Assembly: GCA_965208435.1 (NCBI GenBank)
Contig: OZ242337.1
Location: 1,516,180-1,580,179, forward strand
Source of the DNA: Candidatus Aldehydirespiratoraceae bacterium
GTDB taxonomy: Bacteria; Actinomycetota; Acidimicrobiia; Acidimicrobiales; Aldehydirespiratoraceae
Direction of reading: 5' to 3'
DNA: 64,000 bases
Shown here: positions 16,212 through 55,013 of the stretch, in pieces
Layout of the letters: each line of letters begins with the position of its first letter
Position numbering within the stretch: position 1 is the stretch's first letter
Notes under the pieces: generated by a model
What the model was told of the DNA's origin: nothing
Databases searched by the model: none
What the model saw: only the letters and a program-made list of their open reading frames with translations
Made by a program: the position numbers and the translations under genes

Positions 16212-17895
<1,684 letters not shown>

Positions 17896-20410: not shown

Positions 20411-20486
20411 GCCCGAGTAGCTCAGTTGGTAGAGCAGCTGTCTTGTAAACAGCAGGTCGCAGGTTCGACTCCTGTCTCGGGCTCCA
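20411..20486 (+). tRNA. tRNA-Thr (anticodon UGU), CCA encoded
   Basis: Acceptor gcccgag/ctcgggc, D-arm agctcagttggtagagc, anticodon stem gctgt/acagc with loop cttgtaa, T-arm gcaggttcgactcctgt, then t-cca. Confidence 0.9.
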
Positions 20487-27966: not shown

Positions 27967-27967
27967 G

Positions 27968-31800: not shown

Positions 31801-32288
31801 AGTGTATTCGCCGAGCTGAACCGACTCGCCGGAGGGATCCTGCCGTAGCGGCGTAGCACTGTCGCGTGAAGGGCTCGCAGCACGGTGTGGCTAAGCGGCT
31901 CGCGGTTCGCGGTGACAAGGCCCCGATGGAAACCCGACTCGTCAGTGCCGTGGCGGTGATGGGCTTGTCGGAGCAGTGCACTGACCGATGGCGAGGCGTC
32001 GTTGATGAGACGCAGGGCGACTTCCCGGGTCTCGCCCGCTTCACCGAGCGCGGCGTCAAGGAGCAGGGCCAGTGATGACTTCCCCGACCCGTAGGGACCG
32101 GTCAACGACCACGCTCCCCCTGCTGGACCCCGCGCCGCGGTGGTTGTGATCCGCTCTAGAACATCGAGAGCTCGGGCAGTGACGATGTACCCGTCGAGGG
32201 GTTCGCGTTTGTCGACATCTCGTTCAAGGTTTGCTGAACGGGCGAACCGGCTCTCAACTGTGATGGCGTCTGCGAGTGTCGTCATCAC
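28809..32288 (-). CDS. sspC: Large P-loop ATPase, SspC-like
   Basis: 1159 aa. SLTGPYGSGKSSLAL Walker A, LLLVIDEFGK Walker B. Sits between the DUF4007 and PAPS-reductase genes. Confidence 0.7.
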   Translation of the reverse strand: MMTTLADAITVESRFARSANLERDVDKREPLDGYIVTARALDVLERITTTAARGPAGGAWSLTGPYGSGKSSLALLLDAALGEAGETREVALRLINDASPSVSALLRQAHHRHGTDESGFHRGLVTANREPLSHTVLRALHATVLRRYGRIPPASRFSSANTLKGALEDASVNDPRRTGPSPAALVEIARCLAEDAPLLLVIDEFGKNLEAIGDGGAADPYLLQQLAEAGQGSGLPVFVLTLQHLSFEDYLAGTDGSQRREWAKVQGRFEDVAFVESAVQTRTLIGTVFDVVVDKLAPRIERWAEHHAKEMRALGIPDLADPSVLASCYPLHPLAAFVLPELCNRYGQHERTLFSFLTSPDSASAASYLSVTNIPTQGPLPSLGLEVIYDYFVASGALNVTTARQSTRWTEIATRLRDSHGLTESQARLAKAIALLNLVATTGTVRASRQVLALIDAGSATTLDELDSVGIITYRDFADEYRIWHGTDIDIRGLLDTAHQRVQRQPLAEILSATVHPQPVVAARHSAEHNVLRVFAKRYADSSESIKPLDAFSPYDGEVLLVVGQEQTAPTAAQSGNGYKPVVAAIPDDLTELDTTAREVAAVIATLDNPTVTDDWVARLELSERLAQSRSALDSAIVETFSAETCTWILLGEEENTELPAGRGSAALSAAADMTYSSTPVIRNEMLNRTDLTSQGAKARRLLLEAMIELGSEPDLGFEGYGPEMAMYRAFLKRTGLHGDDKRNETKVFRRPADPSLRPAWDILEAQFKRARTRRLNLGDIYAALLSPPIGMKAAVVPVFVTVGLLAFADEIAIYEHGTFKPRLTTEISERMVSNPSHFDIKHFANTNGARRQVVDALAQRLEIRPRFRKQRVANVLAIVGHLVSRIGQLDNYTRRTTNITATTRNARDTLVAAVEPDELLFVTLPRALGFTTVEPDAKTYPNAPAYADSVGDMIDELTGCYQRLLTDLLELILTESAETSRRVVSGQAAALEDEVLDPAVRAFVMTLANDSVNSDSDWIEAVATVVGKKAPKEWTDDDLLRFRRELPEHLASFQRLVALHADQRAHGAGAFDALRVTVTRSDGSEHVRLVGIDHDQRRHLESALNSVLDELASLTGSPQRAHNSLLALLSERLLPTPSNNEGKLEDSTDHGDTRSSHG

Positions 32289-33340
32289 CGAGCTCCTGCG
32301 AACGCGTGGAGGCGGCGCACTGCCTCGCCGGGTTCACGGCCCAAACCGAGAATATCGATGAGGTCATCTCCGATGGGCTGGTCCCCGTAACGCCCGGCCC
32401 GGACATCCATGGGTGATGCGTTGTAGTAGTCATCAAGAATAGTCTTAGCGACCGCGGCGGGGTCTTGGCTCCAAGCGAGTTGTGCCGCGCCGGTTGGTGT
32501 TGTAAGGCTGAGAGCATCTGTTCGTTCAAGGGTTGGCTCAAGGGCGGCGCGCAGTTCAGTCTCGGTGAGTCTGAACGCCAGGCCGGGAGCGCCAGGCTCG
32601 CGGGCTAGACGGCTCAGAGTGACGGTGTTGCCTCCAGTACCGACACGTGACACATAGTCCAACACGGCGTAGCTGACAATGGCCGACGGCAAAGAAGCCT
32701 TCGGTCCGAGCGTGAATCGGTATTGGCCGGTTGCGGCCGAACGGTCGATCAGGTTGAGTTCTCGTAGCGGGCAGTCCAAGCGGTCTTCAATACCGGTGCG
32801 CCGCGAACGTTCTGCGGGTGCGTACGTGCGAAGAAGGGCATTCAAGTCCTTTTTTACGGACGACGGGTGAGGGTTGGCCCAGTCAGAGACTGCGTCCAGT
32901 TGAATTACGGTCGTTGACTCAAGGTCGTCGCCGGTGAACTCGACGGCGTTGAACTCGTTGAAGGCCAACCACCACACCGGGAGCCGACACGGAGCCGCCA
33001 GTAGCCGCCAGTGCAGCAACCAAAGCGTGCCCGGATCCTCCATGTAACGATCCCATCCGGACTCACCAAACAAGGCATGGCCGAAACGCGTCGGCACGAG
33101 ACCCGGCGAGCGACTGTTCGGGGAATGCGGGTCTTCCACGAGCAGCTTCGCCGCAAGACCCCAGAAGCGGATCGATCGGGCCATGTTCTTGCCCACGCCG
33201 ATCACGACCGGCGCGTCATCCCGGGTGAAGACATGCGGATCGTGGGCGACGACGGTGTAAGCCTTGCGGAACCAACCGTACCGAGGGTGGAACGTCTCAT
33301 GTCGAGCAAACATGGGCTTCGCTGCATCGGTCAACCGCAT
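32285..33340 (-). CDS. sspB: DUF4007 family protein SspB
   Basis: FARHETFHPRYGWFRKAY....D...F.......GVGKNM..S.RFW hallmark of DUF4007. ATGA overlap with sspC. Confidence 0.8.
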   Translation of the reverse strand: MRLTDAAKPMFARHETFHPRYGWFRKAYTVVAHDPHVFTRDDAPVVIGVGKNMARSIRFWGLAAKLLVEDPHSPNSRSPGLVPTRFGHALFGESGWDRYMEDPGTLWLLHWRLLAAPCRLPVWWLAFNEFNAVEFTGDDLESTTVIQLDAVSDWANPHPSSVKKDLNALLRTYAPAERSRRTGIEDRLDCPLRELNLIDRSAATGQYRFTLGPKASLPSAIVSYAVLDYVSRVGTGGNTVTLSRLAREPGAPGLAFRLTETELRAALEPTLERTDALSLTTPTGAAQLAWSQDPAAVAKTILDDYYNASPMDVRAGRYGDQPIGDDLIDILGLGREPGEAVRRLHAFAGAR

Positions 33341-34501
33341 CTAGCTACTCTCCCGATTCATCGCTCTAACGTACTCAACCGCTGTGACAGTCCTCTCAAC
33401 CGCCGTGTCAATTTCCTCGTCGGTAGTGAACCGACCCAGGCTGAACCGGACCGCCTCGAAAGCGGCGTCGGACGGTACACCCATGGCAAGCAGAACCTCA
33501 GACGGTTCGATCGAACCCGAACTGCAGGCGCTGCCAGACGACACCGCCACAGGATCCATATTCGTGACCACTGCTTCTGCGTCAGCGTCCTCAAACCGGA
33601 GATTCGCCGTGTTGGGAAGCCGACAGGTCACGTCTCCGTTTTCGTGAACACCCAGAGTCTTGCCCTTCAGTTCAGCCACGAGACGATCCCGGAGACGCTC
33701 CACACGACCAGACTCGGATTCCCTCTCCTCCATCGCAATGCGAGCAGCCGCGCCGAAGCCAACCGCACCCGCGACGTTCAGTGAGCCCGATCGCAACCCC
33801 CGCTCGTGACCGCCTCCAAGAACGAGCGCACGCAGCAGCCGCAAACTCCGGCCAGTCCCAACCAACGCTCCAACACCGCCGGGACCGCAGATCTTGTGAC
33901 CGCTCATCGACACAAAGTCTGCTCCCAGCTGATCGAGGTCAAAGGCAAGCCGACCCACCATCTGGGTGGCATCGCAGTGGAACAAGGCACCAACCGCATG
34001 CACCCGCTGCGAGATGTCTGCAACCGGGTTGATCACTCCGGTCTCACTGTTTGCAGCCATCACCGACACCAGGCGAACATCGGTATCGACCAGCGCCTCC
34101 ACCGTGTTGGGGTCGACGAAACCTCCGCCAGTGACCGGAATGAAATCAACCTTTGCGAGTCCTTGCTCATTAAGCCAGCGGGCAGTGCGCAGGACCGAAG
34201 CATGCTCCACCGACGAAACCAGAATTCGCGGTCGGTCTGCCGGTGCGCCTTCAACTGCTCCACGAAGTGCAAGGTTGTTGGCCTCCGTGGCACCGGCCGT
34301 GATCACCACGTTCGACGCACGACCACCCACTAGAGCCGCAATGTGCTCGCGGGCCTCATCCACGGCCGCTGCCTGACGCCTCCCGAAACGGTGCACAGAC
34401 GACGCGTTCCCGACACCTCCAGTGAGAACCGGCATCATCACGTCAGCAACACGGGGATCAAGCGGCGACGACCCGTTGTAGTCGAGGTAAACCTCCCTCA
34501 C
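33341..34501 (-). CDS. sspA: Class V aminotransferase cysteine desulfurase SspA
   Basis: NifS/IscS-like: YLDYN.SSP.DPRV, SGHKI.GP.G.G and SSGSACSSG. Abuts the sspB start with no gap. Confidence 0.85.
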   Translation of the reverse strand: MREVYLDYNGSSPLDPRVADVMMPVLTGGVGNASSVHRFGRRQAAAVDEAREHIAALVGGRASNVVITAGATEANNLALRGAVEGAPADRPRILVSSVEHASVLRTARWLNEQGLAKVDFIPVTGGGFVDPNTVEALVDTDVRLVSVMAANSETGVINPVADISQRVHAVGALFHCDATQMVGRLAFDLDQLGADFVSMSGHKICGPGGVGALVGTGRSLRLLRALVLGGGHERGLRSGSLNVAGAVGFGAAARIAMEERESESGRVERLRDRLVAELKGKTLGVHENGDVTCRLPNTANLRFEDADAEAVVTNMDPVAVSSGSACSSGSIEPSEVLLAMGVPSDAAFEAVRFSLGRFTTDEEIDTAVERTVTAVEYVRAMNRESS

Positions 34502-34843
34502 GACCCCTCCGAAGCCTTCTCAGGAGACTGCAACTCGCCACGGAGAAACCAGCTCATCTCGCCGCCAATCGCGAAACAAACGTCGGCGCAAGACACCCTT
34601 AGCACGGAGTCGCCTCATCACACATTGACAGTTCATCCCTAGAGTCCATTGAGGTCACCCTCCTGCCATCGTTCTACAACGGGACACTAGCCCGGATTTT
34701 TCAGTAAGCCGTCGGGGGGTGGCTGTGGGGGCTGGGTCGGGCGCGGCGGCGGTGTGTTGCATCTGACTTCGCGCGACAGATTCTGAGTTTTTTCAAGTCG
34801 CATCGGGCAGGGTTGGCGGTCTTAGGACAGGAGGCTGCAGCCT

Positions 34844-35167
34844 ATGAGTTCCGAGCAGAGAAAACCGAAGAGACTGTTGACAGCGGAGCAGAAGTACGAC
34901 TTGTGGGTGCGGATGCTCACCGGTCAGGTCACTCAGGCCCAAGCGGCCGCGGAGGCGGGGGTGGACCGGTCGGTGATCGCTCGGCTGCGTGCGGTGGCCC
35001 GGGACGGGGCGGTCGCGGCGTTGGGTTCGTCGAAGCCCGGCCGGCGGCGTCAGTCCCAGGCCGAGGCGACCGAGGCTGCGGCGTTGCGTTCGGAGGTGGA
35101 GCGGCTGGGGCGTACTGTGGTCGAACAGGCTGTGGAGTTGGCGGTGCTGCACCGAAAAACGGGTTGA
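34844..35167 (+). CDS. IS3-type transposase OrfA (HTH + leucine-zipper-like)
   Basis: 107 aa. LTAEQKYDLW.....G.VTQAQAAAEAGV.RS.I..L pattern. Confidence 0.75.
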   Translation: MSSEQRKPKRLLTAEQKYDLWVRMLTGQVTQAQAAAEAGVDRSVIARLRAVARDGAVAALGSSKPGRRRQSQAEATEAAALRSEVERLGRTVVEQAVELAVLHRKTG

Positions 35168-35170
35168 GGT

Positions 35171-36224
35171 GTGAGCGGTGGTGTTCCCGCCCGTATTGAT
35201 GGGACCGCCAAGACAGTGCTGCTGGGGTTGATCGACGACGCGACCGCGGCTGGCTGGACGCACAGCCGGGTTTGCACGGTGTTGGGTGTGGACCGCCGCC
35301 GGGCATGGCGCTGGAGCCTGCGCCGACGGCACTCTTGATGATGCCCGCCCAGGCGGCCGGGCGATCCACAGCCTGTTGAGCTCTGAACGCGACGAGATCG
35401 TGGCGCTGTTCGGGGAGTGGGGTGATGTTGACCGGTCGCATCGCAAACTCGCGCACCGCGGCTCCTACCTGGGCCGGGTGTGGGTGTCACCATCAACGGT
35501 GGACCGCGTTCTCGCAGGTCACGGCCTCGCACTGGCCGGCACGCCCCGTCCCGCCAAGACAGCTAAGACGCCGTGGCCAAACTGGTGTGAGTGGCGGCCC
35601 AACCAACTGTGGTGCTGGGACGGAACCCAGTTCCCGGCATGTAAACCCGCCAAACACGTCTACGCGATCGTCGATGTCGTGTCCCGCAAATGGATCGCCA
35701 CCCACCTCACACCGGCACCGGACTCGGTTGCTGCTCGGGTCCTGTTCGCCAAAGCACTGTCCAGTGAAGGGCTCCTCACCGACGAGGCCGCTGCCCGCCT
35801 CGACGACCCCAACAGCGACCTGCCCGACAACAACGAGATCCCGCTGCTGTTGGCAGTGTCAGACAACGGCCCGGAGATGCGCTCAGGTGACACAGCCAAG
35901 TTCATGGCCCTCTGCTCAATCGCCCAACACTTCGGGCGGCGGTCAACGCCCACCGACCAGGCCTGGATCGAGTCTCTGTTCAGCCACATCAAAGGCGAGC
36001 ACCCCCACCTCGAAACGCTCGACGACCCCACAGACCTCACCGGAGAACTCGAACGCGTCCGCAGCCACTACAACTGTGTGCGGCTCCACGAAAGCGTCGG
36101 ATACGTCACCCCCAACGACGAACACACCGGCCAAGGCGACCAAATCCGCCAAGCCCGCCGAGACGGACTCCAACAAGCCGACCAGCAACGACGCGCCCAC
36201 CACCGAAACCAACCGCTAACATGA
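35171..36224 (+). pseudogene. IS3-type transposase OrfB (rve/DDE), apparently disrupted
   Basis: The segment 35171-35335 is in the same frame as OrfA, behind an in-frame TGA. The rve part (35286..36224, W..D.T......YAIVD..SR....) lies in the +1 frame relative to it. Confidence 0.6.
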
Positions 36225-36303
36225 CAAACCAACCACCACCGCACACCCACCAATGCGACTTGAAAAAACCCGCAACCTGTCGCGAAGAGTCAGATACACC
36301 TCA

Positions 36304-36688
36304 CCGGATCCGCGCCCGCGGCCCACACCGCGCGGCGCGCTGTGGCCCGCGCCGCTTTGATCTGTTCGACACGGCCCCCCGCAGCATCAAGGGTCCGCCA
36401 CAGCGTCGACAGCGACGCGACCTCCCCGAACAGCCCCGGCTGACAACCCAGCGCGGCGATGTCGCTGATCGCCTCGCCACCATCAGCGATCATCACCGCC
36501 GCGTCAGCAAGCACCCGGCCCCGGTCATGGCCCCGGTCCCGCACCTTGGTCGACGCCATCGCCTCAGACAACGCCGCCGTCAACCCCGTGTTGTCGGCCA
36601 GATCAGCCAGCAGCCGCGCCCCGGCATGAACAGCCAGACCCCGCCCCCCGCCAGTGAACCTCAACCGCGGCCGACCGCCATTATGCTT
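36304..36688 (-). pseudogene. 5-prime fragment of the IS1380-like transposase gene (truncated by the IS3-type insertion/deletion)
   Basis: The encoded MVKHNGGRPRLRF...AVWAAGADP matches the N-terminus of the copy B transposase except for a few substitutions, then diverges at 36303. Confidence 0.8.
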
Positions 36689-36972
36689 CACCATGCGAGT
36701 GCCCTCCTTGGTGTGACCCCAGAATCTTCTAACAAACCTGATTCTCCCACACCAGGAGGGCACCTCGCGACAACAACCACCCACACACAGACCCCACTAC
36801 TGAAAAATCCGGGCTAGAGTCCGAAACTCAAGCAAACGCGGATTGCAGCTTACGACGGAATGCTGCAATACAATTGGAGGGAAATAGCCAGCAACGAACC
36901 AGGACCGACACTGGCCGACATGTCGCGGCCCTCGGGCCGCGCTGCACCACCGATCACTGCTACCAATGCGAC

Positions 36973-39900
36973 ATGGCGAAGAAGCGCGCTAAACGCCGAA
37001 AAAGAGGCTCGAAACGAAGGATCGCGCCAGTTCGACAGTCGATTGAGGGCGGCCTCGAAGAAACTCGGCCTGTTGAAGCGGACAAGGACTCTAATGTCGA
37101 GTTGCTGGTCAGCCAGTGGGCCGAATCAAGATCCGGTGCTCGCGCAGGTCGCGGCTTCCACTTTCAGGATGAGATCGGTGCCTGGCTAGCTGCCCGCCTT
37201 GCATGCGGGATAGGACCTGCGTGCCTCGTTCCTGAGGGATTCGAAGACTCGACTCTGGAAGGCGACGAGCCGATCCACATCCAGGTCAAGTCGAGGGTCG
37301 AGCATCTGGACAAGTTCCCGCCTTCTACGGCTAGCAGGCACATTCTCGATGCCTGGGAACGGCACGCTTCTAGAGAGCATCGGGGTGCTGGCTTGATCGT
37401 TGTGCTTGAACGTGGCGTGACGGGCGAAAAAGACCTCAACGAACTCGATGATCTCGACACTTCGCTGGCGAACAGATTGGACCGTGGGTCCGCGCTCATT
37501 ACGGATCTGACGACCAGGGCCATGAGTCGAGGCATGAGCGAGCGCGAACTGTCCGAATTGCTGGGCACGACAGTCGTCAGCGGGGCCAGTCGAGCAGAAG
37601 TTTTGGCCGCGACGGTTGCTCACATTCGCAGTCAGTGGAACCTTCCTCCCTCGGCGCTGAGGCTCGTTGCTCGACAGCTATGTTCAGATGTTGCAGATGC
37701 TTCAGACGCAAACGCGACGGCGAGTTTCGAGACTCGTCGTCGGCTCGACCGAACCGCGGTCGTGAGCGCAATCGAGCAGACCGTGGCTCAACTCGATCTT
37801 GAGTCTCTGGAGTTCGCGGTACGGCAGGGGATCTGCGAAACCCTTGCGTACCCAGAGTCACAGCCAAGCGATGATCGGTACTACGAAGGCACGGCTACGC
37901 AGCCGTCTCACGTCGCGTCGAACCTCGTCGTCCCACGCCCAGAGCTCGTCGCTGAAGTCTTGTCCGGGTTAGATGATCGCTCGGCAGCAGTCATCACAGG
38001 GCCATCGGGCGTCGGCAAGAGCGCAGTCCTTTGGACCATTCCTCTTGCTCTGCCTGGTGTGCTTTGGTTCCGCGTCAAGCGCCTGTCAACTCCCGATGTC
38101 CTCCACCTCATCCGGCTCGCTCGTGCATACGACGTGGCTCACGATCGACCTGTCGGATTCCTGGTTGATGGTGCTGGCACCACCGAATTCACCGCTTGGG
38201 CGGAACTGCGCTCTGCAGCGGCAGCTTTGCCCGGCCTGCTCCTTCTGGCGACGGCGCGATCTGAGGACTTGTTTGTGCTTGGCGATCTCTCAACGTGCGC
38301 CTCTATTGACGTTCGCCTCGATGAAGCCGCCGCGGAGACGATCTTCGCTGGACTGGTTCGACGGGAATCTACTGATGCTGCCCACTGGATGGAGGCCTTC
38401 GAAGCGTCAAACGGTTTGACGCTTGAGTTCACACACTTGCTCACCCGAGGAAACCGGCTTGACGACGTGATCAACGAACAGATCCGGCGACGCATAGACG
38501 AAGAGCGACATGACGAACTCGACGTTCTCGCTCTGGCGTCAGTCGCGGACCGATGGTCCGCACGACTCTCAACGGATGCGCTTGCCCAGGCATGTGGCTT
38601 GGCTAACTTCCAACTCCGTGCAGCACTCAGCCGTATCGCCGCCGAGCACCTAATCGTGGAGCGAGACGGGGAGGTAGGAGGTCTCCACCGGCTGCGTTCG
38701 GTCGCTCTGTGCGATGCCATCCACCTCTTGCCACCGCCGCAGCTCGCCCAAACGATCAAGCGCGTGGTTCCTCGAGTCCCCGACCCTCAGTTGTATCGAT
38801 TCGCGGCGTCGATTCTTGTCGAAATGCCCGAGATCCACAGGATCGTGATGGAAGCGGGGATTAGTAGTGGGCTGGAAGCCGAACGCTTCATTGCGCTCGG
38901 GCAAGGCTTTCGACTCGCTGGCTTCTATGAGCGTGCAAGAAAGTGGAAACAGATTGCGCAGGAACAGAACATTCCGGTTTCGAGCCAGCCAGTCCTTGTC
39001 TTGTTCGCAACTGCGGGCCTCGAATTCCCCGACATGTTTCCGGTGGAGCTTCGGACTGCTCACGACGCGATGCGATGTGCCGTCGATGAAGGATTCAGGG
39101 ACACACTGACAACCGCGATTGGTCATGCTGAAGTAGCTGACCTGATCGCATCCGAGAGTTCCTTAGACCGAGCAACCAGCATGCTCGAAGTAATAAATGG
39201 GAGCCCACCAGAACTGACCAACGCTCTTCGCGAAGCCCTGGATGCTGGAACTTCCTTCGAAGTGAGTCTGCGATCCGCTTCCCTGGAAGACTTGACTAGG
39301 TGCATTGCGGCAACACGCGGCTGTGCCCCACAGCTAGCCGCGCATGTCGTGGATCTGCTCGGTGGCGAGCCCGCCGTCCTTCGAAAGATCCGTACAGAAA
39401 ACCCTTGGATCATCGAATTGGACACACGCTCGGTAGACGGTGAGAGCATCGGCTACTGTCGCTTCCTGCACGTCTCAGACTCGGCTCAGCCGGATGTCGG
39501 CGAAGAGGCGATAGCACTCGGGCGCTTGTTGCTGCGCTGCCTTCCGAACATCGACGGGGTCGATGTCCAGGCACTCTGGCCAGGAGGCTTGCCAATGACG
39601 ATTGGCAATCACACGATCGGAATCAGCCATCTCAAACGCCAGCACGACCACACACCGGCCGATCTCGCTTGGAATCAAGTCCGACTCCGAGCGGCGCAAA
39701 CGCTTCTCGGCGCAGCCGATACGACGCGACTCTTCCAAGCGCTCCCCCTACTTGAACGCGCCTCCGATCTGATCCTGCGTCTCGGTAACGGACTTGTGTC
39801 TGGGAGCGTGCACGATCTCGAAGATCTCAACGCGCAACTTGTCGAACTCCGCGAAGGCGCTCATGCGCTCCACCCGCCACTCGGGTCCGCGCTGCTCAGT

Positions 39901-41007
39901 GACGCGATGATGTCAAGCGATTCAACATTTGTTGTGACGGACAATCTGTCCGCACTGATCACCGATCTGACTGACAACGTCTTGCCGCGACTCAGCAGAC
40001 CGGATGAGTATCGAGCGCTTACGGTCTACATCAGTGAGACAGTCCTAGAAAAGCACCTGCAAGGCGCTATCGGCGAGCCATGGCGACTCATTGGTCTAAA
40101 GGGTCATCCACCAAGTCTTGACTCCCTCCGATCCACGTTGCTGGACCTGCACGCAGTAATCAACGAACTAGCGGAGGCCGATGCCGACGCAGCTCGAATC
40201 AGGAGGAGCGCCCGATCAGGGGCACCAGCACGTGCGCTGCAGCGCGCCGCAGAGACCTGCACGAAGGCCGAACGCCGCCGCAATCAAACCAGACGCACCA
40301 CTGTCCAATCGACCTTCCGAGAGACCGGTCTGGCAGCCAAGGTCCGACACATCGATCACGAAGCCGCCGGCAGGGCCCGGTACTTGGTGTCGGTTGATAT
40401 CGCTTCGCTACTCGACTGGCCGGACGCTGTCGCTAACCTTGTGGAAGCGCTCGGTACGGACCGACCAATTGGAGAGACCTGCGTCTTCGTTCCGCTGCGC
40501 GATGGCCGGCCGATTCCAAGCCTCACTATGAAGCTGATCGATAACTTGTGGCCGTTCCCCAATCCTGAGGGTCTCGACTCGCTGCCTGAGGCGCATCCCA
40601 GCACCTATGCGGACTTATTCAACCAGTGCCAGCATTCCCTACAGACACTGTCGGGCATCTCCCAGTTGCCAGATGAACAGCAGTCCCACGAGATCATCCT
40701 CGCTGTCGTTGACTCGGCCACATCGGAATTCGCGACCGCCTTTGAGCAAATCAATGATCTCCCTAGCGATCCGGTTGTCAGTGACCTTCTCGAACTTCTC
40801 ACTGGGACCACGGTTAGAGTCCAGTCGGAACTAGAGGGAACAAGCACGGAGCCGTGTTTCGCTGAGCAAATCATGACCGGGATGCTCGATGGTGGCGGAA
40901 TTCCTGAGTTAGACACGATTATCCTTGCCCGTTACCTAGCGTTGGAGTGGGACATCGACGCAAATGATGCGGTCAGATTCTACGACTCCTTGATATCCGA
41001 GAGTTAG
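36973..41007 (+). CDS. Giant defence-type protein: Cap4/DUF4297-like PD-(D/E)xK nuclease + P-loop (STAND-like) NTPase + about 800 aa helical C-terminus (Avs-like)
   Basis: GRGFHFQDEIGAWL.....LVPEGFEDSTLEG..PIHIQVKSR (nuclease), ITGPSGVGKSAVLW (Walker A), GFLVDGAG and LLLATARSED. An alternative TTG start lies at 36874. Confidence 0.65.
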   Translation: MAKKRAKRRKRGSKRRIAPVRQSIEGGLEETRPVEADKDSNVELLVSQWAESRSGARAGRGFHFQDEIGAWLAARLACGIGPACLVPEGFEDSTLEGDEPIHIQVKSRVEHLDKFPPSTASRHILDAWERHASREHRGAGLIVVLERGVTGEKDLNELDDLDTSLANRLDRGSALITDLTTRAMSRGMSERELSELLGTTVVSGASRAEVLAATVAHIRSQWNLPPSALRLVARQLCSDVADASDANATASFETRRRLDRTAVVSAIEQTVAQLDLESLEFAVRQGICETLAYPESQPSDDRYYEGTATQPSHVASNLVVPRPELVAEVLSGLDDRSAAVITGPSGVGKSAVLWTIPLALPGVLWFRVKRLSTPDVLHLIRLARAYDVAHDRPVGFLVDGAGTTEFTAWAELRSAAAALPGLLLLATARSEDLFVLGDLSTCASIDVRLDEAAAETIFAGLVRRESTDAAHWMEAFEASNGLTLEFTHLLTRGNRLDDVINEQIRRRIDEERHDELDVLALASVADRWSARLSTDALAQACGLANFQLRAALSRIAAEHLIVERDGEVGGLHRLRSVALCDAIHLLPPPQLAQTIKRVVPRVPDPQLYRFAASILVEMPEIHRIVMEAGISSGLEAERFIALGQGFRLAGFYERARKWKQIAQEQNIPVSSQPVLVLFATAGLEFPDMFPVELRTAHDAMRCAVDEGFRDTLTTAIGHAEVADLIASESSLDRATSMLEVINGSPPELTNALREALDAGTSFEVSLRSASLEDLTRCIAATRGCAPQLAAHVVDLLGGEPAVLRKIRTENPWIIELDTRSVDGESIGYCRFLHVSDSAQPDVGEEAIALGRLLLRCLPNIDGVDVQALWPGGLPMTIGNHTIGISHLKRQHDHTPADLAWNQVRLRAAQTLLGAADTTRLFQALPLLERASDLILRLGNGLVSGSVHDLEDLNAQLVELREGAHALHPPLGSALLSDAMMSSDSTFVVTDNLSALITDLTDNVLPRLSRPDEYRALTVYISETVLEKHLQGAIGEPWRLIGLKGHPPSLDSLRSTLLDLHAVINELAEADADAARIRRSARSGAPARALQRAAETCTKAERRRNQTRRTTVQSTFRETGLAAKVRHIDHEAAGRARYLVSVDIASLLDWPDAVANLVEALGTDRPIGETCVFVPLRDGRPIPSLTMKLIDNLWPFPNPEGLDSLPEAHPSTYADLFNQCQHSLQTLSGISQLPDEQQSHEIILAVVDSATSEFATAFEQINDLPSDPVVSDLLELLTGTTVRVQSELEGTSTEPCFAEQIMTGMLDGGGIPELDTIILARYLALEWDIDANDAVRFYDSLISES

Positions 41008-41125
41008 CTACCCGGCTTCTAGTCAGGACCCCACCCTTGATCTCCCTCGCGGCTTCGCGACACCGGGTTGGGAGAACACCGGGTGACGGGACTGTGAACC
41101 GTTCGAATAGGCGAATCGTTCTGTA

Positions 41126-41141
41126 TTCTTGTGTACAAGAA
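41126..41141. promoter_or_regulatory. Inverted repeat ttcttgt-gt-acaagaa plus agaacag direct repeats in an AT-rich spacer upstream of the AbiE-like operon
   Basis: Read directly. Lies 25-40 nt upstream of ATG 41166. Confidence 0.3.
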
Positions 41142-41165
41142 CAGAGAACAGATACATTCAGATCC

Positions 41166-42212
41166 ATGGCTCGACGTACCAACGCTGTCATGGGGCAGGA
41201 CGCTGTAGACGACTTGGCCGAGGTTCTAGGTCGGATAGGCGTCGTTACCGACGTCTTGTCGAGGGAGCAGTCTGCCGGGGGCACGCGTGTCGATGCCGTG
41301 GTCGAGGTTGCTGGCCGGCAATTCGATGTCGAGGTCAAGTCGGTGGTCACTGCAGCGCACGGAGCGCACTTGGCTGGAATTGTGAGGCCAGACGTGCCGC
41401 TGATAGTTGTTGCCGATCGCATCGCTGCCGATGCCAAGCTGTCACTGCGTGAGGCGGGGGTCAACTACTTCGACCGGCGCGGAGAATTGCGCGTCGTGGC
41501 CCCACCGTTGATCATCCACACGGATGTCGAAACCACCCTCCCAACGGCAGGCATTCCCTCCGGGTCACTCGACAGTCAAGTGGCCAAGGAAGTCGCAATA
41601 GCTTGCTTGTTGACGCCGGACCAGCCCCACGGTGTTCGTCAGATCGCCCGCTACATCGAACGAGCGCCCAGCGCCGTCTCCAAGGCGATGACGGGGTTAC
41701 GAGACGACGGCCTACTCACCTCCGCTGGTGAAGCGTTGGTCCCGGATCTCTTCCACGCGCTTCTGTCGGTGTGGCGACGACGGGCTGTTCTGCTGGATGC
41801 GCTCCCTGAACCTGGCGCCCGCGAGGCAAGACGTCTGGGACTTGGTCTCGACACGCCCGAAGACTCCACAGGTTGGGCACTCACCGACACCCGAGCCGCC
41901 GCGTCATGGGGCATACCGATCGTCGCAACCGGCGATTACCCTCCAGACTTCTACGTGCCCTCCAAGTCATCCCTACGTACCGCACGCTCGCACCTGGGCG
42001 AAGCAACCAGTCCCGCTTCGCGCGCCTGCACCGTGGCGGTGGCACCCGTCCGGCTCGCGTGTCTCCGGAGAGTAGACCACTCCCGCGCAACCGGGGAGAA
42101 GTGGCCGGTAGCGAACCACATCGTCGTCGCCCTCGACATCGTCCAAGACCAAGCTCGCGGACTCGAAGCACTCGAGCAGTGGAAGCCCGAAGGGATCGCT
42201 CGTGCCTGGTGA
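41166..42212 (+). CDS. Three-part protein: PD-(D/E)xK-like N-domain + wHTH + AbiEi-like C-terminal domain (putative antitoxin/regulator)
   Basis: VDAVVEV.GRQFDVEVKS (D...ExK-like), HGVRQIARYIERAPSAVSKAMTGLRDDGLL (wHTH). 11 nt overlap with the downstream NTase gene. Confidence 0.5.
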   Translation: MARRTNAVMGQDAVDDLAEVLGRIGVVTDVLSREQSAGGTRVDAVVEVAGRQFDVEVKSVVTAAHGAHLAGIVRPDVPLIVVADRIAADAKLSLREAGVNYFDRRGELRVVAPPLIIHTDVETTLPTAGIPSGSLDSQVAKEVAIACLLTPDQPHGVRQIARYIERAPSAVSKAMTGLRDDGLLTSAGEALVPDLFHALLSVWRRRAVLLDALPEPGAREARRLGLGLDTPEDSTGWALTDTRAAASWGIPIVATGDYPPDFYVPSKSSLRTARSHLGEATSPASRACTVAVAPVRLACLRRVDHSRATGEKWPVANHIVVALDIVQDQARGLEALEQWKPEGIARAW

Positions 42213-42969
42213 GTCTGTCGTCCTTGAGAGCGACCGCGCCGGCCAGATCCGATCATTCGTCGACGCGCTCAACCGCTTCCCAACCAAACCTCCCTGGGCG
42301 GTCGTCGGCGGGTTCGCCGTCTACGTGCGCATCACCGATGTCCACCGCGTCACCAACGACCTCGACACCGTGACCAGCGACCAGCCCTCGCTCGTCGAGA
42401 TCCTCGCCGCTGGACCCGGTGCCGAACGCCTCGCTGCCGCCAAGCTGCAGATCAACCAAGGCGGCGCTGCAGTCGTAGTCGACGTAATGGGCGACACGAG
42501 CGACACTCCACTGCCAACCGACCCCGGTGAGCGGGCCTTCGCCCTCGCCCGACGCATGGCGCTATCCACCAGCGAATCAACCGAACTTCTTGTATTCGAA
42601 GACGAGACCGTCGTCACTCGGACGAGCGCTCCGATCGCAACCGCATCCTCACTCATCGCTCTCAAGGCTGTCGCCATCCCCCGGCGCTCCCAAAGCAGCA
42701 ACTCCGCGAAGGTCGGCTCTGACATCCACGATCTCGTCCGTCTAGTCCACAATTCCGACTTCGACGATGCCGTCGATTCCATCAGCGGGGCCGGTGCTGA
42801 GGTTCGGGACTGGGTCGGGACGACCCTGGTCAAATGGTTCGCGCCAGACAAGGACCTCCGATACACCTCCACGAGACTCCGCCGGTTTACCTCTTCGCCC
42901 GACGCCCAAGTACTCACGGACGACGATCTTGCTATCGTCGCCGAACTCGGCCACGCGCTCCTGTCGTAG
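42202..42969 (+). CDS. Nucleotidyltransferase, AbiEii/AbiGii toxin family-like
   Basis: WAVVGGFAVYVR......VTNDLDTV (GG...D.D NTase core) and K.GSDIHDL. GTG start with gaaggg 8 nt upstream. Confidence 0.65.
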   Translation: MPGESVVLESDRAGQIRSFVDALNRFPTKPPWAVVGGFAVYVRITDVHRVTNDLDTVTSDQPSLVEILAAGPGAERLAAAKLQINQGGAAVVVDVMGDTSDTPLPTDPGERAFALARRMALSTSESTELLVFEDETVVTRTSAPIATASSLIALKAVAIPRRSQSSNSAKVGSDIHDLVRLVHNSDFDDAVDSISGAGAEVRDWVGTTLVKWFAPDKDLRYTSTRLRRFTSSPDAQVLTDDDLAIVAELGHALLS

Positions 42970-43058
42970 CAGAATCACGACTGTCTGAACTTTACTCTCC
43001 GACCGATCTGCCACGAAGCCCTAGTTTCCCTAGCGAATCAACGGGTTGGGTCACGCTC

Positions 43059-43922
43059 GTGCTTATCTTCGCGTGTGCTAGACAATACGCCGTGTTCACG
43101 TTCATCGGTCTCGACCTGGCTTGGAAGGCAAGCAACGAGAGCGGCATCTGCTGGTTTGAAGGTGAGACGTCTGAGAGCCTCACATGTGTGCGGTTCGAAG
43201 CCGCTGTGTGCGATATTGACGACCTCGCTGACGAGATCGCCCAGGTGCCCGGGACGGTGGTCGTCGCGATCGACGCTCCACTGCTCTATACCGCTGACCG
43301 AGATGTCGAGAGGAAAATTGGCCGGCAGTTTGGTCGCTACCACGCATCCGCACATTCGGCGCATGCCGCGGTGCGTCGAGGGTGGAGAGCTGGAATTGAT
43401 CTCGGTGTTGCCCTCAAGGATCGTGGCTTCACACTCGACCCGGCCGTGCTTGGGCACGAACGCGATTGCCGCGTTGCGGTTGAGGTCTACCCGCACACCA
43501 TCCACGTGCGTCTGTTCAACTTGACTGAACGTCTGCCATACAAGCAAAAGCGGAGGCGACCTGTCGCCTTCCGTAGAGGGATCTTCAACCAGTACCAGGG
43601 TCACCTGCGAGCACTGGCGGAGCGCCAGGTGCCGGGTGTGCTCGCCCATCCCGATATCCAGAACGCCCTCGCACCACAAACGGCCCAGGATGCCAAGGGC
43701 GCCGGCCTCAAGCATTTGGAGGACAAGCTCGACGGACTCACCTGCGCACTCGCTGCTTGGCTCGCATGGAGCAACCCTCTGGAATGGGAGACGATCGGCG
43801 ACATGAACGGCTACATGGTTGTACCGCACCCAGCGGCTGCGCTTCCCCCCACAGGAATCGACTCGGATACCATTCGAAACGCCGTGTCAGAAGCGAAAGA
43901 CGAACTCGAACTTGGACGATGA
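43059..43922 (+). CDS. DUF429 family protein (predicted RNase H-fold nuclease); start GTG 43059 or 43092
   Basis: FIGLDLAW, VVAIDAPL, EVYPH.. and LED..DGLTCA patterns typical of DUF429. The listed ATG 42834 would overlap the previous gene by 136 nt. Confidence 0.55.
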   Translation: MLIFACARQYAVFTFIGLDLAWKASNESGICWFEGETSESLTCVRFEAAVCDIDDLADEIAQVPGTVVVAIDAPLLYTADRDVERKIGRQFGRYHASAHSAHAAVRRGWRAGIDLGVALKDRGFTLDPAVLGHERDCRVAVEVYPHTIHVRLFNLTERLPYKQKRRRPVAFRRGIFNQYQGHLRALAERQVPGVLAHPDIQNALAPQTAQDAKGAGLKHLEDKLDGLTCALAAWLAWSNPLEWETIGDMNGYMVVPHPAAALPPTGIDSDTIRNAVSEAKDELELGR

Positions 43923-43935
43923 GCAAGGCGGAGCA

Positions 43936-45597
43936 CTAGCCCGGATTTTTCAGTAAGCCGTCGGGGGGTGGCTGTGGGGGCTGGGTCGGGCGCGGCGGCG
44001 GGTGCGGGGCGGTTGGTGGGCGTGTGGGGGCGTGTGGGGTTGTCCGATGCTGTTTGAAAAAACTTCAGGATCTGTCGCGCGAAGTCAGATGCAACACAAC
44101 GCAACCCAAGATGCAACCCAAGTGCGGTGGGGGGTGTGTTCAGATGAGTAGGGGGAGGTTGTGTACTCGTTGGAACGCGGTGATGAGGTGGGGGGTCCAT
44201 GGCCAGTCGTCGGCGAGTCTGGCGTAGCGGCGGCGGCCGGTGTATGTGAGCCGGGCTGCGGTGTGCAGCAGGCAGTAGCGCAGCCGTTTGGGTTCGGCTG
44301 TGGCGAGGTCGCCGTCGAGGGTGAGCAGGCGGGTCCATGCCAGCAGGTCGTGCGCGGTCATCGACAGTTGTATCCAGGCGGAGTTGGTCTCGAACGAGTG
44401 CGACGGGAGTTTGGCGAGCCCGGTGGCTTTGTTGTCGCGGATCTGTTGCTCGGCGCGGCCTCGGCCGCGGTGGAGTGCTTCGATGTAGGCGATGTCGGTG
44501 TCGGCCAGGTCGGTGATGAGTACTTGCAGGCGGCGCCCGCGGGTGTCGGTGAAGGTGAGTTGCGCTCCGGGGTGGGGGTCCTCGCGGCGTGCGATCATGC
44601 GGCAGTTGTCGGGGCGGCCTGACAGGTCGACGTGTTCGGTGATCTCGGTGACCTCGGCGTGGTCTCGCAGTTCCGAGCCGTCAGCCGATACCGCCGGCTG
44701 CCAGTGCTTGTCGCCGATTTCTGTTACAGCGGCTGCGATGTCGATGCTGAGCGGGTGGCTCACACAGAAGCGGACCTGACGCTCGCGGCACGCTTTGAGG
44801 AACGCCTGGGTGCATCCCGCGGAGTCGGCGCGGACGACCACCTCGACTTTGCGGGGGTCCACAGGGATCTGCTCTAAGGCGTCGTCGAGGACCTCGGTGT
44901 GGTCCGTAGCGGTGTTGGACCCGGCGTTGCCGGGGCGCAAAAGACCGGCCAGCGCCTCACCGGTCGCGTCGAGGTACGCCATCAGCGGATGGAACCCGAA
45001 GCCGCCCTTGTAGGTCCCCGCGGCGCCCTGCTTGTTGGAGTGCGAGTCCACCAGCGTGGCGTCGATGTCGATCACATAGAACCCCGGATCCGCGCCCGCG
45101 GCCCACACCGCGCGGCGCGCTGTGGCCCGCGCCGCTTTGATCTGTTCGACACGGCCCCCCGCAGCATCAAGGGTCCGCCACAGCGTCGACAGCGACGCGA
45201 CCTCCCCGAACAGCCCCCGCTGACAACCCAGCGCGGCGATATCGCTGATCGCCTCGCCACCATCAGCGATCATCACCGCCGCGTCAGCAAGCACCCGGCC
45301 CCGGTCATGGCCCCGGTCCCGCACCTTGGTCGACGCCATCACCTCAGACAACGCCGCCGTCAACCCCGTGTTGTCGGCCAGATCAGCCAGCAGCCGCGCC
45401 CCGGCATGAACAGCCAGACCCCGCCCCCCGCCAGTGAACCTCAACCGCGGCCGACCGCCATTATGCTTCACCATGCGAGTGCCCTCCTTGGTGTGACCCC
45501 AGAATCTTCTAACAAACCTGATTCTCCCACACCAGGAGGGCACCTCGCGACAACAACCACCCCCACACAAACCCCACTACTGAAAAATCCGGGCTAG
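43936..45597 (-). mobile_element. IS1380-like element, copy B, intact (1662 bp, flanked by CTAG on both sides)
   Basis: Terminal IRs cccggatttttcagta / tactgaaaaatccggg with ctag at each end. Encloses a full-length transposase gene. Confidence 0.85.
44140..45474 (-). CDS. IS1380-family DDE transposase (444 aa from MVKHNGG)
   Basis: FYVIDIDATLVDSHSNKQGAAGTYKGGFGFHPL motif. aaggaggg lies 6 nt upstream of ATG 45474. Confidence 0.85.
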   Translation of the reverse strand: MVKHNGGRPRLRFTGGGRGLAVHAGARLLADLADNTGLTAALSEVMASTKVRDRGHDRGRVLADAAVMIADGGEAISDIAALGCQRGLFGEVASLSTLWRTLDAAGGRVEQIKAARATARRAVWAAGADPGFYVIDIDATLVDSHSNKQGAAGTYKGGFGFHPLMAYLDATGEALAGLLRPGNAGSNTATDHTEVLDDALEQIPVDPRKVEVVVRADSAGCTQAFLKACRERQVRFCVSHPLSIDIAAAVTEIGDKHWQPAVSADGSELRDHAEVTEITEHVDLSGRPDNCRMIARREDPHPGAQLTFTDTRGRRLQVLITDLADTDIAYIEALHRGRGRAEQQIRDNKATGLAKLPSHSFETNSAWIQLSMTAHDLLAWTRLLTLDGDLATAEPKRLRYCLLHTAARLTYTGRRRYARLADDWPWTPHLITAFQRVHNLPLLI

Positions 45598-45665
45598 TCA
45601 TCGCAGCAGCCGTCCCACGAGCCGAGACCCCCACCTAGACATCCCAGAGTGTTGAACGTAATCGT

Positions 45666-45702
45666 CTCAAAGTGTTATATCAAACTACCTCAAAGTGTTA
45701 TA
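45666..45702. promoter_or_regulatory. Two direct copies of ctcaaagtgttata (45666-45679, 45689-45702) upstream of the AAA/DUF4143 gene
   Basis: Read directly. AT-rich stretch 38-75 nt upstream of ATG 45740. Confidence 0.3.
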
Positions 45703-45739
45703 CGCTTGTCTGGAGCCTGAACACGCAAGGAGTTTCACT

Positions 45740-47035
45740 ATGGATGAGGGGATACCACCCTTCCCCAGCTACCGGGCCAGATTGGCAGAAACTGAAGTTC
45801 AGCAAGCACTGAATCGCCGCGGCGCTGTGCTCCTTGAAGGCGTTCGCTGGTGCGGGAAGACTTCGACCGCGCTGCGGTTTGCCAACAGCGCACTGCGTCT
45901 AGACGACCCAGACGCCCGAACTCTGGCAGGAACCGACCCCACCGAGGCGCTGCGCGGGAACACCCCCCGACTCGTTGACGAATGGCAGAACGTTCCTCAA
46001 CTGTGGAACCGAATACGGCGCGAGTGTGACGAGCGAGCCACACCAGGTCAGTTCATCTTGACCGGATCAGCGTCGCCGCGTGAAGACATCACACGTCACA
46101 CGGGCACCGGTCGCATCGCTCGGGTGAAGATGCGACCCATGTCGCTGTTCGAGACTGGTGCCTCCGACGGTTCTACTTCGCTCCGCCAACTCTTTGCTGG
46201 TGACACAATCACCAAAGCTGCTCAAACCGATGTCGGGCTACGCGATATCGCATCGTGGATCTGCACCGGAGGATGGCCGGCACACATCGGCCTTGACAAA
46301 ACCACAGCACGGCGGTCGGCGCGAGACCATCTCAATGAGTCGGTGCTCGTTGATGTTGGCTCCGCCGGCGGAGTACGCCATGACCGCGACTCGCTGATGG
46401 CGCTCGCCCGATCCATCGCTCGTAATGTCGCGACCGAAGCACGCACCTCGAAACTCATAGCCGACATGGTCGGATCAGAAGCCGACTCAAACACGGGTGT
46501 CTGGCGCCAGACAGCCACCACTTACCTCGCGGCGCTACGGCGCATCTTCCTTATTGAGGACCAGCCAGCATGGCCGGGCCACCTAAGGTCCCGAGCAGCG
46601 CTTCGCAAAACTCCAAAACGTCATTTCGTGGACCCGTCGCTCGCCGCGGCTGCATTGCAAGCATCACCGGAGCAGCTCCTCACCGACACAAAGACGCTCG
46701 GGACCCTGTTTGAGTCACTTGCTGTACGCGACCTGAGGATCTACGCCCAACGAGAATTTGCTTCGGTGTACCACTACCGAGACAGCGACAACCTTGAAGT
46801 CGACGCGATCATCACACGCGACGACGGTGCCTGGCTCGCCGCAGAGGTAAAGCTCAGCCACAACAGCGACACCATCGACCAAGCAGCCAAGAACCTGCGA
46901 CGTCTACGGGACAAAGTCACCAAGCAGCGCCAGCAGGACTTAGCGGGCCTGCTCGTGATCACAGCACTCGGGCCGACTTACCGCCGACCTGACGGAGTTC
47001 AGGTAGTCCCCATCACGACTCTCGGACCCCAGTGA
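45740..47035 (+). CDS. AAA-type ATPase with DUF4143 C-terminal domain
   Basis: LLEGVRWCGKTSTA Walker A, LVDEWQ Walker B, later ..YYRDSD..EVDAI.. pattern. aaggag SD 8 nt upstream. Confidence 0.75.
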   Translation: MDEGIPPFPSYRARLAETEVQQALNRRGAVLLEGVRWCGKTSTALRFANSALRLDDPDARTLAGTDPTEALRGNTPRLVDEWQNVPQLWNRIRRECDERATPGQFILTGSASPREDITRHTGTGRIARVKMRPMSLFETGASDGSTSLRQLFAGDTITKAAQTDVGLRDIASWICTGGWPAHIGLDKTTARRSARDHLNESVLVDVGSAGGVRHDRDSLMALARSIARNVATEARTSKLIADMVGSEADSNTGVWRQTATTYLAALRRIFLIEDQPAWPGHLRSRAALRKTPKRHFVDPSLAAAALQASPEQLLTDTKTLGTLFESLAVRDLRIYAQREFASVYHYRDSDNLEVDAIITRDDGAWLAAEVKLSHNSDTIDQAAKNLRRLRDKVTKQRQQDLAGLLVITALGPTYRRPDGVQVVPITTLGPQ

Positions 47036-47064: not shown

Positions 47065-47364
47065 TCAGGTGATCAGGCGGAGGGCGGCGGTCACTGACAT
47101 GGCGGCGACAATTACCACCAGAAGCGGGGCCTTGCGCCATACGGCAATCGCGCCGACAGCCACGCCGACGACCCTTGCGTCGAGTACCGGCTCGCCTGCC
47201 GTCTCGAAGGTCATCACCACGATCAGCGCCGAGAACAGAACGGCCGGCAACAGCGACACCAACGGACCCAGCCGCCGTTCCACGACCGCGCCTAGAGCCG
47301 TCACACCCAGGACCTTCAAGCCGTAGGAACCCGCGGCGAGCACGATCATCAGGGGCCAGCTCAC
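47065..47364 (-). CDS. azlD: Branched-chain amino acid exporter small subunit AzlD
   Basis: 99 aa from GTG 47364. Hydrophobic throughout (WPLMIVLAAGSYGLKVLG...). 4 nt overlap with the azlC end. Confidence 0.75.
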   Translation of the reverse strand: MSWPLMIVLAAGSYGLKVLGVTALGAVVERRLGPLVSLLPAVLFSALIVVMTFETAGEPVLDARVVGVAVGAIAVWRKAPLLVVIVAAMSVTAALRLIT

Positions 47365-48110
47365 GGTCGACCCCCGGGTTCGCCGCCGAGCAGCCCCTCG
47401 CTGTCGCTCGGCCACCGGTGGCGCACGTACAACGCCGGTATCACCGCGAACACCGCCAGCAGGATCGGGATGCCCGATGCGCTGAACGGCACCGCACCCA
47501 AAGCAATTGCGGCCGCGGCAACCGCAGCCACACGGCCCGCCGCAGTGCGGACATGAGTGGCGAGCAGCGCAACGAAGATCGCAGGGAAGGCCGCATCGAG
47601 CCCCCAAGTCTCCGGCGTGCTCAAGACGCCACCCAGAGCCGCACCCGCCAACGAGCCCAGGTTCCAGCAGATCCACAGGGTCACACCGGTGAACCAGAAA
47701 GCGTCCCAACCAGAGCGGCGGTCCGGTTGGGCGACCGCCATGGCAGTGGTCTCATCGATCACCAGATGGGCTGCACCCAGCCTCTACAGAGTCGAGTCGG
47801 GCAGCATCTTGCGCACCACCGGCCCGTACAGCGCATTGCGGGTCGCCAACAGCAGCGCCGATCCGACCGCGGCACCGCCGGTCCCGCCGTCGTCGATCAC
47901 GCCCACGGCCGCGAACTGCGAAGCTCCCGTGAACACCAGCGCCGACATCACCACGATGCGGGGCAGATCGAACCCTGCCGCCTCGGCGAACACCCCGAAG
48001 GTCACCCCGATGACTCCGACCGCAAGGCTCACCACCAGGCAGTCACGCCGCCGACGCCGCCGTGCCCCGCCACCCGTGGGATCCATGTTCTCTGTAGGCG
48101 GTCCAGCCAT
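47361..48110 (-). pseudogene. azlC: AzlC family permease interrupted by an in-frame TAG (47784-47786)
   Basis: ORFs 47784..48110 and 47361..47762 are in the same frame. The read-through sequence ...KMLPDSTL*RLGAAHLVIDETTAMAV restores the conserved AzlC ..DET.. region. Confidence 0.7.
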
Positions 48111-48217
48111 CGTCCGTCCTGATCACCTCGGGCTGCACGCCGAGCGAATACGCAAAGATACAACCGTGCCCGAAGCGCTCAAACCGCGCCAGCACGCCGG
48201 AGCGGGGGCGATATCAT

Positions 48218-48348
48218 CCGCACGGACCAGACGGGGCAGACGGGCAAACGGGGACAGACCGCACAAACAGGCAAACGGAGACAGACGAAACAGACGGGCA
48301 AACCGGGCAGACGGGGCAGACGGACCAGACGGGGACAGAGGAGACAGA
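48218..48348 (+). repeat. 131 nt T-free, CAGAC-rich degenerate repeat tract
   Basis: No T on the + strand across 48218-48348. At least eight CAGAC units. Longer repeats cagacgggcaaac x2 and gaccagacgggg x2. Confidence 0.85.
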
Positions 48349-48379
48349 TGGACAGGAGCCGAAACAGGTGGGCGAACCC

Positions 48380-49486: not shown

Positions 49487-49632
49487 GACTAGTCGAAACG
49501 GAACTAGACGAGTAGTTCCAAGGGGTGGTGGGGTCCACCATGTCGGGTCCCGCTGCGGGCGGGGGAACGGGCAGAATCACCGCACCGTCGGCGGGTCGTC
49601 GTTGTCTGTGACGGTGACTGTTGTGGTGGTTG

Positions 49633-51903: not shown

Positions 51904-51954
51904 TCACTTTCATCCCTTCGCTAAAACCAGCAAGCCGAAAACGGCAACCCGGCC

Positions 51955-51990
51955 ATACAATGTATACCTACGTTGACTATACAATGTATA
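51955..51990. promoter_or_regulatory. Two copies of the palindromic atacaatgtata, 24 bp apart, upstream of the secreted protein gene
   Basis: 51955-51966 and 51979-51990. AT-rich, 52-87 nt upstream of ATG 51903. Confidence 0.35.
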
Positions 51991-52088
51991 TCCAACATGG
52001 CAACCCACAACCACCGACCCCTTGGAACAAATCGTCTAGCAGGGTGCTGAACCAGCCCGAAACAGACCCGGACCAGCCGAAACAGGCG

Positions 52089-54252: not shown

Positions 54253-54318
54253 CCCAACAGGTCCTTTATCGCCCTAAATCAGGACCGGGTCAGGCCGCCC
54301 AACTAGATTGAAGGTGCG

Positions 54319-54978: not shown

Positions 54979-55013
54979 GCTACCAGAGCCACTGGGTTGC
55001 CAAAGCCGCTGAG

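Follow-up and report, generated by a model that had tools for sequence, protein, structure and literature searches.

Two copies of one insertion sequence (IS), oriented alike and with the same four nucleotides at every junction, enclose a group of defence genes, and the question raised by this locus is whether the IS pair brought those genes to where they now lie. The locus belongs to a contig (OZ242337.1) of a Candidatus Aldehydirespiratoraceae bacterium. The window is the whole 64-kb stretch of this contig that was analysed; all coordinates refer to it unless they follow an L-number, which denotes a locus retrieved from another genome. The two direct copies of an IS1380-family element, called here copy A (left) and copy B (right), flank about 7.1 kb that holds a gene for a 1,344-aa STAND-like protein, an AbiEii pair and a DUF429 gene, with CTAG at each flank. 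The original prediction proposed that this 10.9-kb unit could have moved as a compound transposon, carrying its defence cargo into the island. Comparison with related genomes contradicts this, since each copy has its own empty site. These comparisons make it very probable that the two copies are separate insertions into an already existing tRNA-Thr defence island of an Acidimicrobiales chromosome. The likeness to a compound transposon is a matter of geometry only, and the arrangement is an ordinary one.

Contigs of related Acidimicrobiales were found through homologues of the 1,344-aa cargo protein and of SspA, whose gene lies to the left of copy A. In L022, which encodes a SspA 93% identical to that of the window, positions 9745-9810 correspond to window 36879-36814 and positions 9807-16529 to window 34690-27975, the latter at 91% identity. 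The two matches share exactly one CTAG, and the uninterrupted sequence reads ...CTACAACGGGACA-CTAG-AGTCCGAAACTCAA.... In a global alignment to L022, the window scores 203 when copy A is taken out, versus 105 when the whole 10.9 kb is removed. The sequence GGACACTAGAGTCCGAAACTC is likewise unbroken in L024 and L025 (SspA 88% identical). The roughly 75 bp that follow copy A on its right thus belong to the ssp upstream region, into which copy A inserted by itself.

The site that copy A splits is a palindrome, GGACA-CTAG-AGTCC (GGACACTAGAGTCC), about 190 bp upstream of sspA, the central CTAG being the target. Its parts lie at 34682-34695 and 36809-36822 in the window, and its counterparts at about 9800-9815 in L022 and 5790-5810 in L024. 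The 21-mer GGACACTAGAGTCCGAAACTC is perfectly conserved among ssp modules, whereas the DNA around it is only 77-91% identical. Such conservation would fit a regulatory site, and the IS may have broken one and thereby affected Ssp expression. A 9-mer, CTAGAGTCC, found only at 34639 and in the right flank of copy A, was considered as the trace of a local duplication and rejected as a chance match, since neither L022 nor L024 has kept its upstream copy.

The empty site of copy B lies within a gene. An intact PIN (vapC-like) gene comes after the DUF429/antitoxin-like gene in both L012 and L023. The left flank of copy B stops at a CTAG that is conserved in codons 9-10 of this PIN gene, and its right flank, 45601-45638, corresponds to the final 38 nt of that gene (34/38 against both L012 17345-17382 and L023 6275-6312), with an alignment score of 56 compared with a maximum of 26-27 for shuffled sequences. 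If copy B is removed the remnant is in frame and reads LDDEQGGALV|IAAAVPRAETPT, where L012 has LDDEAGEALV...LAATAPRAETPT. The alignments thus indicate that both flanks of copy B derive from one gene.

Gene order in the relatives bears on the cargo itself. Over window 36946-43934 the identity is 87.6% to L011 and 86% to L012, and the core genes downstream, azlD/azlC/adh (47065-49479) and spoU/ispF/ispD/crp (52108-55532), are collinear in L011, L012 and L023. The bracketed genes of L011 and L012 adjoin these same core genes (azlDC-adh-spoU-ispFD-crp). In L012 the cargo thus occupies the corresponding chromosomal site and no IS copy flanks it, which is the finding that the original prediction had named as its refutation; L012 to L016 are free of this IS for 10 kb around the 1,344-aa gene. 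Homology of the cargo begins at 36946, 25 bp before the ATG of that gene, and ends at about 43834. Both edges fall within the bracketed segment, short of the IS ends by 128 bp and about 100 bp respectively, which argues that the arrival of the cargo was unrelated to these IS copies. The margins of the segment are made up of the approximately 75 bp of ssp upstream DNA on the left and the first 10 codons of the PIN gene on the right.

A repeat scan places the 16-bp perfect inverted repeat (IR) CCCGGATTTTTCAGTA at plus-strand starts 34691 and 43940 and at minus-strand starts 36813 and 45593, with CTAG directly outside 4/4 IS ends. It agrees with the coordinates, the direct orientation and the four CTAG junctions given in the original prediction. 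There are 77 CTAG in the 64 kb and 4/4 IS junctions have one, which is not due to chance. Fourteen complete copies, from the window and from relatives recovered with their flanks through close transposase homologues, were compared at this point. All 14 lie between matching 4-bp direct repeats, CTAG in 10 cases and TTAG in 4, and three truncated copies have CTAG on the side that remains. Some copies stand between TTAG and TTAG, which proves that these 4 bp lie outside the IR and are target sequence that was duplicated. CTAG is a genuine 4-bp target duplication and YTAG is the preferred target, so that both of the possibilities first entertained, duplication and preference, hold. As anticipated, single and joint transposition cannot be told apart by the junctions, since all four are CTAG through target preference. 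An extended target consensus, suggested by the similar left flanks of copies A and B (CGGGACACTAG and CGGAGCACTAG), was rejected because none is seen among the 14 copies. A literature search for IS1380 together with CTAG returned no paper.

That the outer flanks of the pair are never neighbours in a relative, while each copy has an empty site of its own (L022 and L024/L025 for copy A, L012 and L023 for copy B), argues for independent insertions. It renders highly improbable that a true compound transposon of 10.9 kb moved whole and delivered the defence genes by entering a CTAG that lay between the sspA and DUF4143 genes, even though the copies are direct, the outer ends form a proper pair of right and left IRs (IRR and IRL), the copy B transposase is intact and the outer junctions are CTAG. 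When the flanks are set against uninterrupted sites in relatives, they join across each single IS and not across the whole unit. The same reading is at odds with the position of the cargo next to azlDC-adh in L011 and L012, the latter devoid of the IS, and with the cargo homology edges (36946 and about 43834) that fall within the bracketed segment. The original prediction had proposed a search for the same IS pair elsewhere. A megablast search of 72,556 plasmids with window 34500-45800 found nothing, and no second instance was found among the GTDB species representatives with the IS end. The prospect that contigs of a metagenome-assembled genome (MAG) were wrongly joined at a repeated IS is raised by the assembly, which appears to be of the MAG type and has ENA and NCBI MAG contigs as its nearest records. 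It is nevertheless scarcely credible that the arrangement is such an artefact: both flanks of each copy are collinear with uninterrupted, independent relatives, unlike what a chimeric join across repeats would give. Moreover, five single-nucleotide differences and a nested IS3-like element set the two IS copies apart, so that they were not collapsed in the assembly.

A separate question is whether two independent insertions have given birth to a compound transposon in place, the copy B transposase now mobilising the unit via its outer ends. Future joint movement is mechanistically possible, since the outer ends pair correctly and the copy B transposase looks intact. The outer IRs (IRR of copy A, IRL of copy B) do not differ from those of the intact copy, the transposase has its full length of 444 aa and near-identical IS copies in diverged MAGs suggest recent activity. 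By analogy, the unit would resemble ISEcp1-type use of a distal IRR or direct IS pairs of the Tn9 type. Against such mobilisation, which we consider unlikely, stand the failure to find the unit anywhere else, be it in the plasmid collection or in genomes with the IS end, the 5/514 positions at which the two copies differ, and the competition of a 10.9-kb unit with a far shorter 1.65-kb element for one transposase. If it does occur, the STAND/AbiE/DUF429 cassette, together with a dead IS3-like element, would be movable to new YTAG sites, and the locus would represent a defence-gene compound transposon caught at birth.

Two points weigh against separate insertions into a pre-existing island. The relatives with empty sites are rather distant, sharing only about 78-91% nucleotide identity in core genes, so that the order and timing of the events are inferred. 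In addition, 334 bp from the interior of the PIN gene are lost from the window, and this loss is unexplained; the deletion probably did not begin at an IS end, given that the TC(A) of the 5' site is retained beside the right-hand CTAG. With separate insertions as the preferred explanation, the STAND-like, AbiEii-pair and DUF429 genes would have been resident before either IS arrived. Copy A would have entered the CTAG at the centre of the palindrome upstream of sspA, and copy B the CTAG in codons 9-10 of the PIN (vapC-like) gene that closely follows the DUF429 gene. Later, an IS3-family-like element would have entered the transposase gene of copy A, and an adjacent deletion from the left tip of this nested element would then have taken 1,082 bp, leaving copy A without a transposase but with both of its ends.

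Table 1. Features of the IS-bracketed segment and its borders (window coordinates)
Feature	Position	Strand	Remarks
CTAG target duplication left of copy A	34687..34690	.	single CTAG here in uninterrupted L022, L024, L025
Copy A, IRR-end fragment, 62 bp including 16-bp IR	34691..34752	-	identical to copy B 43940-44001
Nested IS3-family-like element, 1,551 bp	34753..36303	+	TG...CA ends, imperfect IRs of ~69 nt
Copy A, IRL-end fragment, 510 bp	36304..36813	-	~130 N-terminal transposase codons; partial NF033539 match
CTAG target duplication right of copy A	36814..36817	.	
ssp-module upstream DNA, contiguous with 34690 in relatives	36818..36893	.	L022 9745-9810 and L024/L025 run through GGACACTAGAGTCCGAAACTC
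1,344-aa P-loop/STAND-like protein ('Avs-like' gene)	36973..41007	+	start set by 100% identical P0121 and orthologues
Partner ORF (open reading frame) upstream of AbiEii	41037..42212	+	maximal ORF 391 aa; 348 aa in relatives; weak helix-turn-helix (HTH) matches only
AbiEii-family nucleotidyltransferase	42202..42969	+	PF08843 28.3 bits (cutoff 22.5); PADLOC AbiEii
DUF429 / PADLOC PDC-S44 candidate gene	42834..43922	+	maximal ORF; 263 aa in L011
PIN/vapC-like gene, 5' remnant, 10 codons, ends in CTAG of copy B	43912..43939	+	LDDEQGGALV; L012 LDDEAGEALV
IS1380-family copy B, complete, 1,654 bp	43940..45593	-	CTAG duplications 43936-43939 and 45594-45597
Solo IS3-like left IR (~58 nt) inside copy B, between transposase stop and IRR	44041..44098	-	
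Same PIN/vapC-like gene, 3' remnant, last 12 codons and stop	45598..45638	+	
Inner junction sequences of the IS-cargo-IS unit			CCGGGCTAGAGTCCGAAAC and GGCGGAGCACTAGCCCGG

The family assignment made in the original prediction is borne out. Copy B has one ORF on the minus strand, best read as 44140-45474, whose product scores 289.4 bits with the NCBIfam model NF033539 'IS1380 family transposase' (cutoff 180; model 6-419 of 419 covered) and 213 bits with Pfam PF13701 (cutoff 34.7). By a model match above cutoff, a single ORF, terminal repeats and a 4-bp duplication, copy B belongs to the IS1380 family. Its transposase is full length relative to homologues and looks intact; only the N-terminal part remains in copy A, and the early claim that copy B alone has an intact transposase stands. 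The IS1380 family, as represented in ISfinder, is recognised by a typical length, CC ends and duplications of 4-5 bp. Like IS1380 and ISEcp1 (NF033539, PF13701), the present element encodes one DDE transposase (about 440 aa) in 1.65 kb, short terminal IRs that start with CC and a 4-bp target duplication. It departs from the family in its strict use of YTAG here (14/14 complete copies), in its Acidimicrobiales host and in the solo IS3-like IR within the element; unlike ISEcp1, it gives no sign here of one-ended mobilisation. While the family itself is well known, this Acidimicrobiales member with strict YTAG targeting is uncharacterised.

Several relatives of the element were recovered. The transposase P0001 (locus L001) is 96% identical to that of copy B, and P0017 is 76% identical, with nine copies encoding the identical protein in one assembly (L002-L010). 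The IS copies of an Acidimicrobiales MAG (OZ224042.1 / CAXXNK02; L017-L021) are 97-98.5% identical to copy B. Such a degree of identity in Acidimicrobiales MAGs whose common DNA is only about 91% identical suggests recent IS activity and, with the nine P0017 copies, lends indirect support to transposition of the element. L001 (ENA ERZ21861969 ctg11880l, 1-9007), besides its IS copy, is crowded with IS256-type Transposase_mut, further IS1380-type pieces and DDE_Tnp_1_3, and its positions 7515-8099 match window 585-1 at 88.5%.

The solo IS3-like left IR inside copy B recurs in related copies, at about 1825-1885 in L001, about 2585-2642 in L021, 6555 in L017, 990 in L018 and 7173 in L020. Over its first 29 nt it has the same sequence as the left IR of the IS3-like element nested in copy A. 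In L017 and L020, both from MAG OZ224042.1, the tip of this solo-IR scar is the exact point at which the IS1380 sequence breaks off. In L018 everything from the tip onward is deleted, which leaves a 546-bp derivative resembling a miniature inverted-repeat transposable element, with CTAG on both sides. These breaks suggest that IS3-like and IS1380 elements have been in repeated interplay.

Two IS copies with the same termini do bracket the cargo, as originally described; copy A is not a full copy, and its middle is an IS3-family-like element. Copy A aligns to copy B only at 34687-34752 (66/66) and at 36304-36817 (509/514, against 45084-45597). The 1,082 bp that it lacks correspond to copy B 44002-45083, and the gap starts exactly at the left tip of the nested element. 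Copy A is thus internally deleted and disrupted with both ends kept, and the loss likely came about through an IS3-mediated adjacent deletion.

The nested element has an orfA at 34844-35167 with a weak HTH match and an orfB that matches rve (39.3 bits) and rve_3 (36.5 bits), both above cutoffs; orfB is frameshifted near 35326-35331, and no clear -1 frameshift site was identified in the element. Its matches to the IS3 model NF033516 (94 bits, cutoff 160) and to the IS481 model (57.8, cutoff 224) stay below cutoff. A relative with 84% nucleotide identity occurs at L011 6536-8097. It is flanked by a CCGG/CCGG duplication and sits within another IS1380-family element, and its ORFs overlap by 4 nt; the window element has no target duplication (CGG on the left, CCGG on the right). 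The IS1380::IS3 pair of L011 was examined as a possible orthologue of copy A and rejected, as the IS1380 parts are unrelated in nucleotides and the IS3-like element lies at a different codon. The rve DDE domain, the TG...CA termini, the orfA/orfB layout and the 4-bp CCGG duplication of the L011 copy are IS3-like traits, whereas the score below the NCBIfam cutoff and, in the window copy, a broken orfB and a missing duplication are not. Members of the IS3 family, for example IS911, have a known tendency to insert beside sequences that resemble their own IRs. The nested element, found in IS1380-family elements that bear IR-like sequence, is reminiscent of this habit.

As in Tn5, Tn10 and Tn9 (direct IS1 copies), cargo lies here between a pair of like IS copies, of which one has kept its ends but no functional transposase, and the other could supply the transposase in trans. 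A further comparison is ISApl1-mcr-1-ISApl1 (Tn6330; PMC5821093). The locus differs from all four in that each arm has its own empty site, the cargo is resident, the unit has never been seen to move and none of the duplications is attributable to the entire unit. It therefore serves as a caution: a like-oriented IS pair with identical junctions around defence genes can mimic a compound transposon although the pair did not deliver the cargo. By-products of the comparison are a YTAG-targeting member of the IS1380 family, a case of IS-in-IS decay and the split palindrome upstream of sspA.

The tRNA-Thr gene of this mosaic island lies at 20411-20486. Directly to the left of copy A, at 25807-34501 on the minus strand, are a complete SspABCD phosphorothioation module (PADLOC: SspC 1046 bits, SspA 419 bits) and a PbeA-like helicase/nuclease; the right side of the island holds a DUF4143 / PDC-S01 ATPase gene. 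In L023, Ssp adjoins the PIN gene and the cargo is absent. In relatives the island ends, on its far side, at a 38-46-bp repeat of the tRNA-Thr 3' end that resembles an att site (L014 509-585 and 15777-15822; L012 1257-1294; L023 7172-7212). Within the 64 kb of the window only the tRNA-Thr gene itself was found, without a second att-like repeat.

Identity to the related MAGs is 86-88% for the cargo and 91% for Ssp (27975-34690), as compared with 78-84% for the flanking core genes (47065-55532). That the defence modules are more similar than the core suggests that they were exchanged as modules by recombination and not via these IS copies. The 1,344-aa gene of the relatives is always preceded by genes for HTH, patatin, DncV-like CD-NTase and E2-CBASS proteins and by a 1,234-1,242-aa Upx-like gene. 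This block (L012 2347-13972, L013 2026-13643, L014 2413-14035) is missing as a whole from the window, and in L011 the Upx-like gene is cut to 530 aa beside an IS. The constant neighbourhood raises the possibility that the STAND-like protein may be functionally tied to the CBASS-like operon.

The gene content first reported for the bracketed segment proves roughly right: the AbiEii and DUF429 genes stand, whereas the 1,344-aa protein has no PADLOC Avs match and the partner ORF has no match to an AbiEi family. For the 1,344-aa protein, matches to nSTAND_NTPase5 (E=0.0037) and AAA_16 (E=0.011) both fall below threshold. AAA_16 is nonetheless matched at E<=0.01 by 17 of 22 homologues, and a Walker A motif, GPSGxGKS, is invariant. 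No PDB relative was found by single sequence or by profile. 'Avs-like' is a reasonable lead for this protein, its membership being not established. The last 90 bp or so of the DUF429 gene are common to the antitoxin-like gene upstream of PIN in L023.

Two minor observations concern the rest of the window. Its positions 4001-5000 have a G+C content of 0.46, compared with 0.58-0.68 elsewhere. At the right side of the island, two 14-bp direct repeats, CTCAAAGTGTTATA, lie at 45666-45679 and 45689-45702, 23 bp apart, shortly before or across the predicted start of the DUF4143 / PDC-S01 ATPase gene, whose true start may be the ATG at 45741; the pair has the look of an operator.

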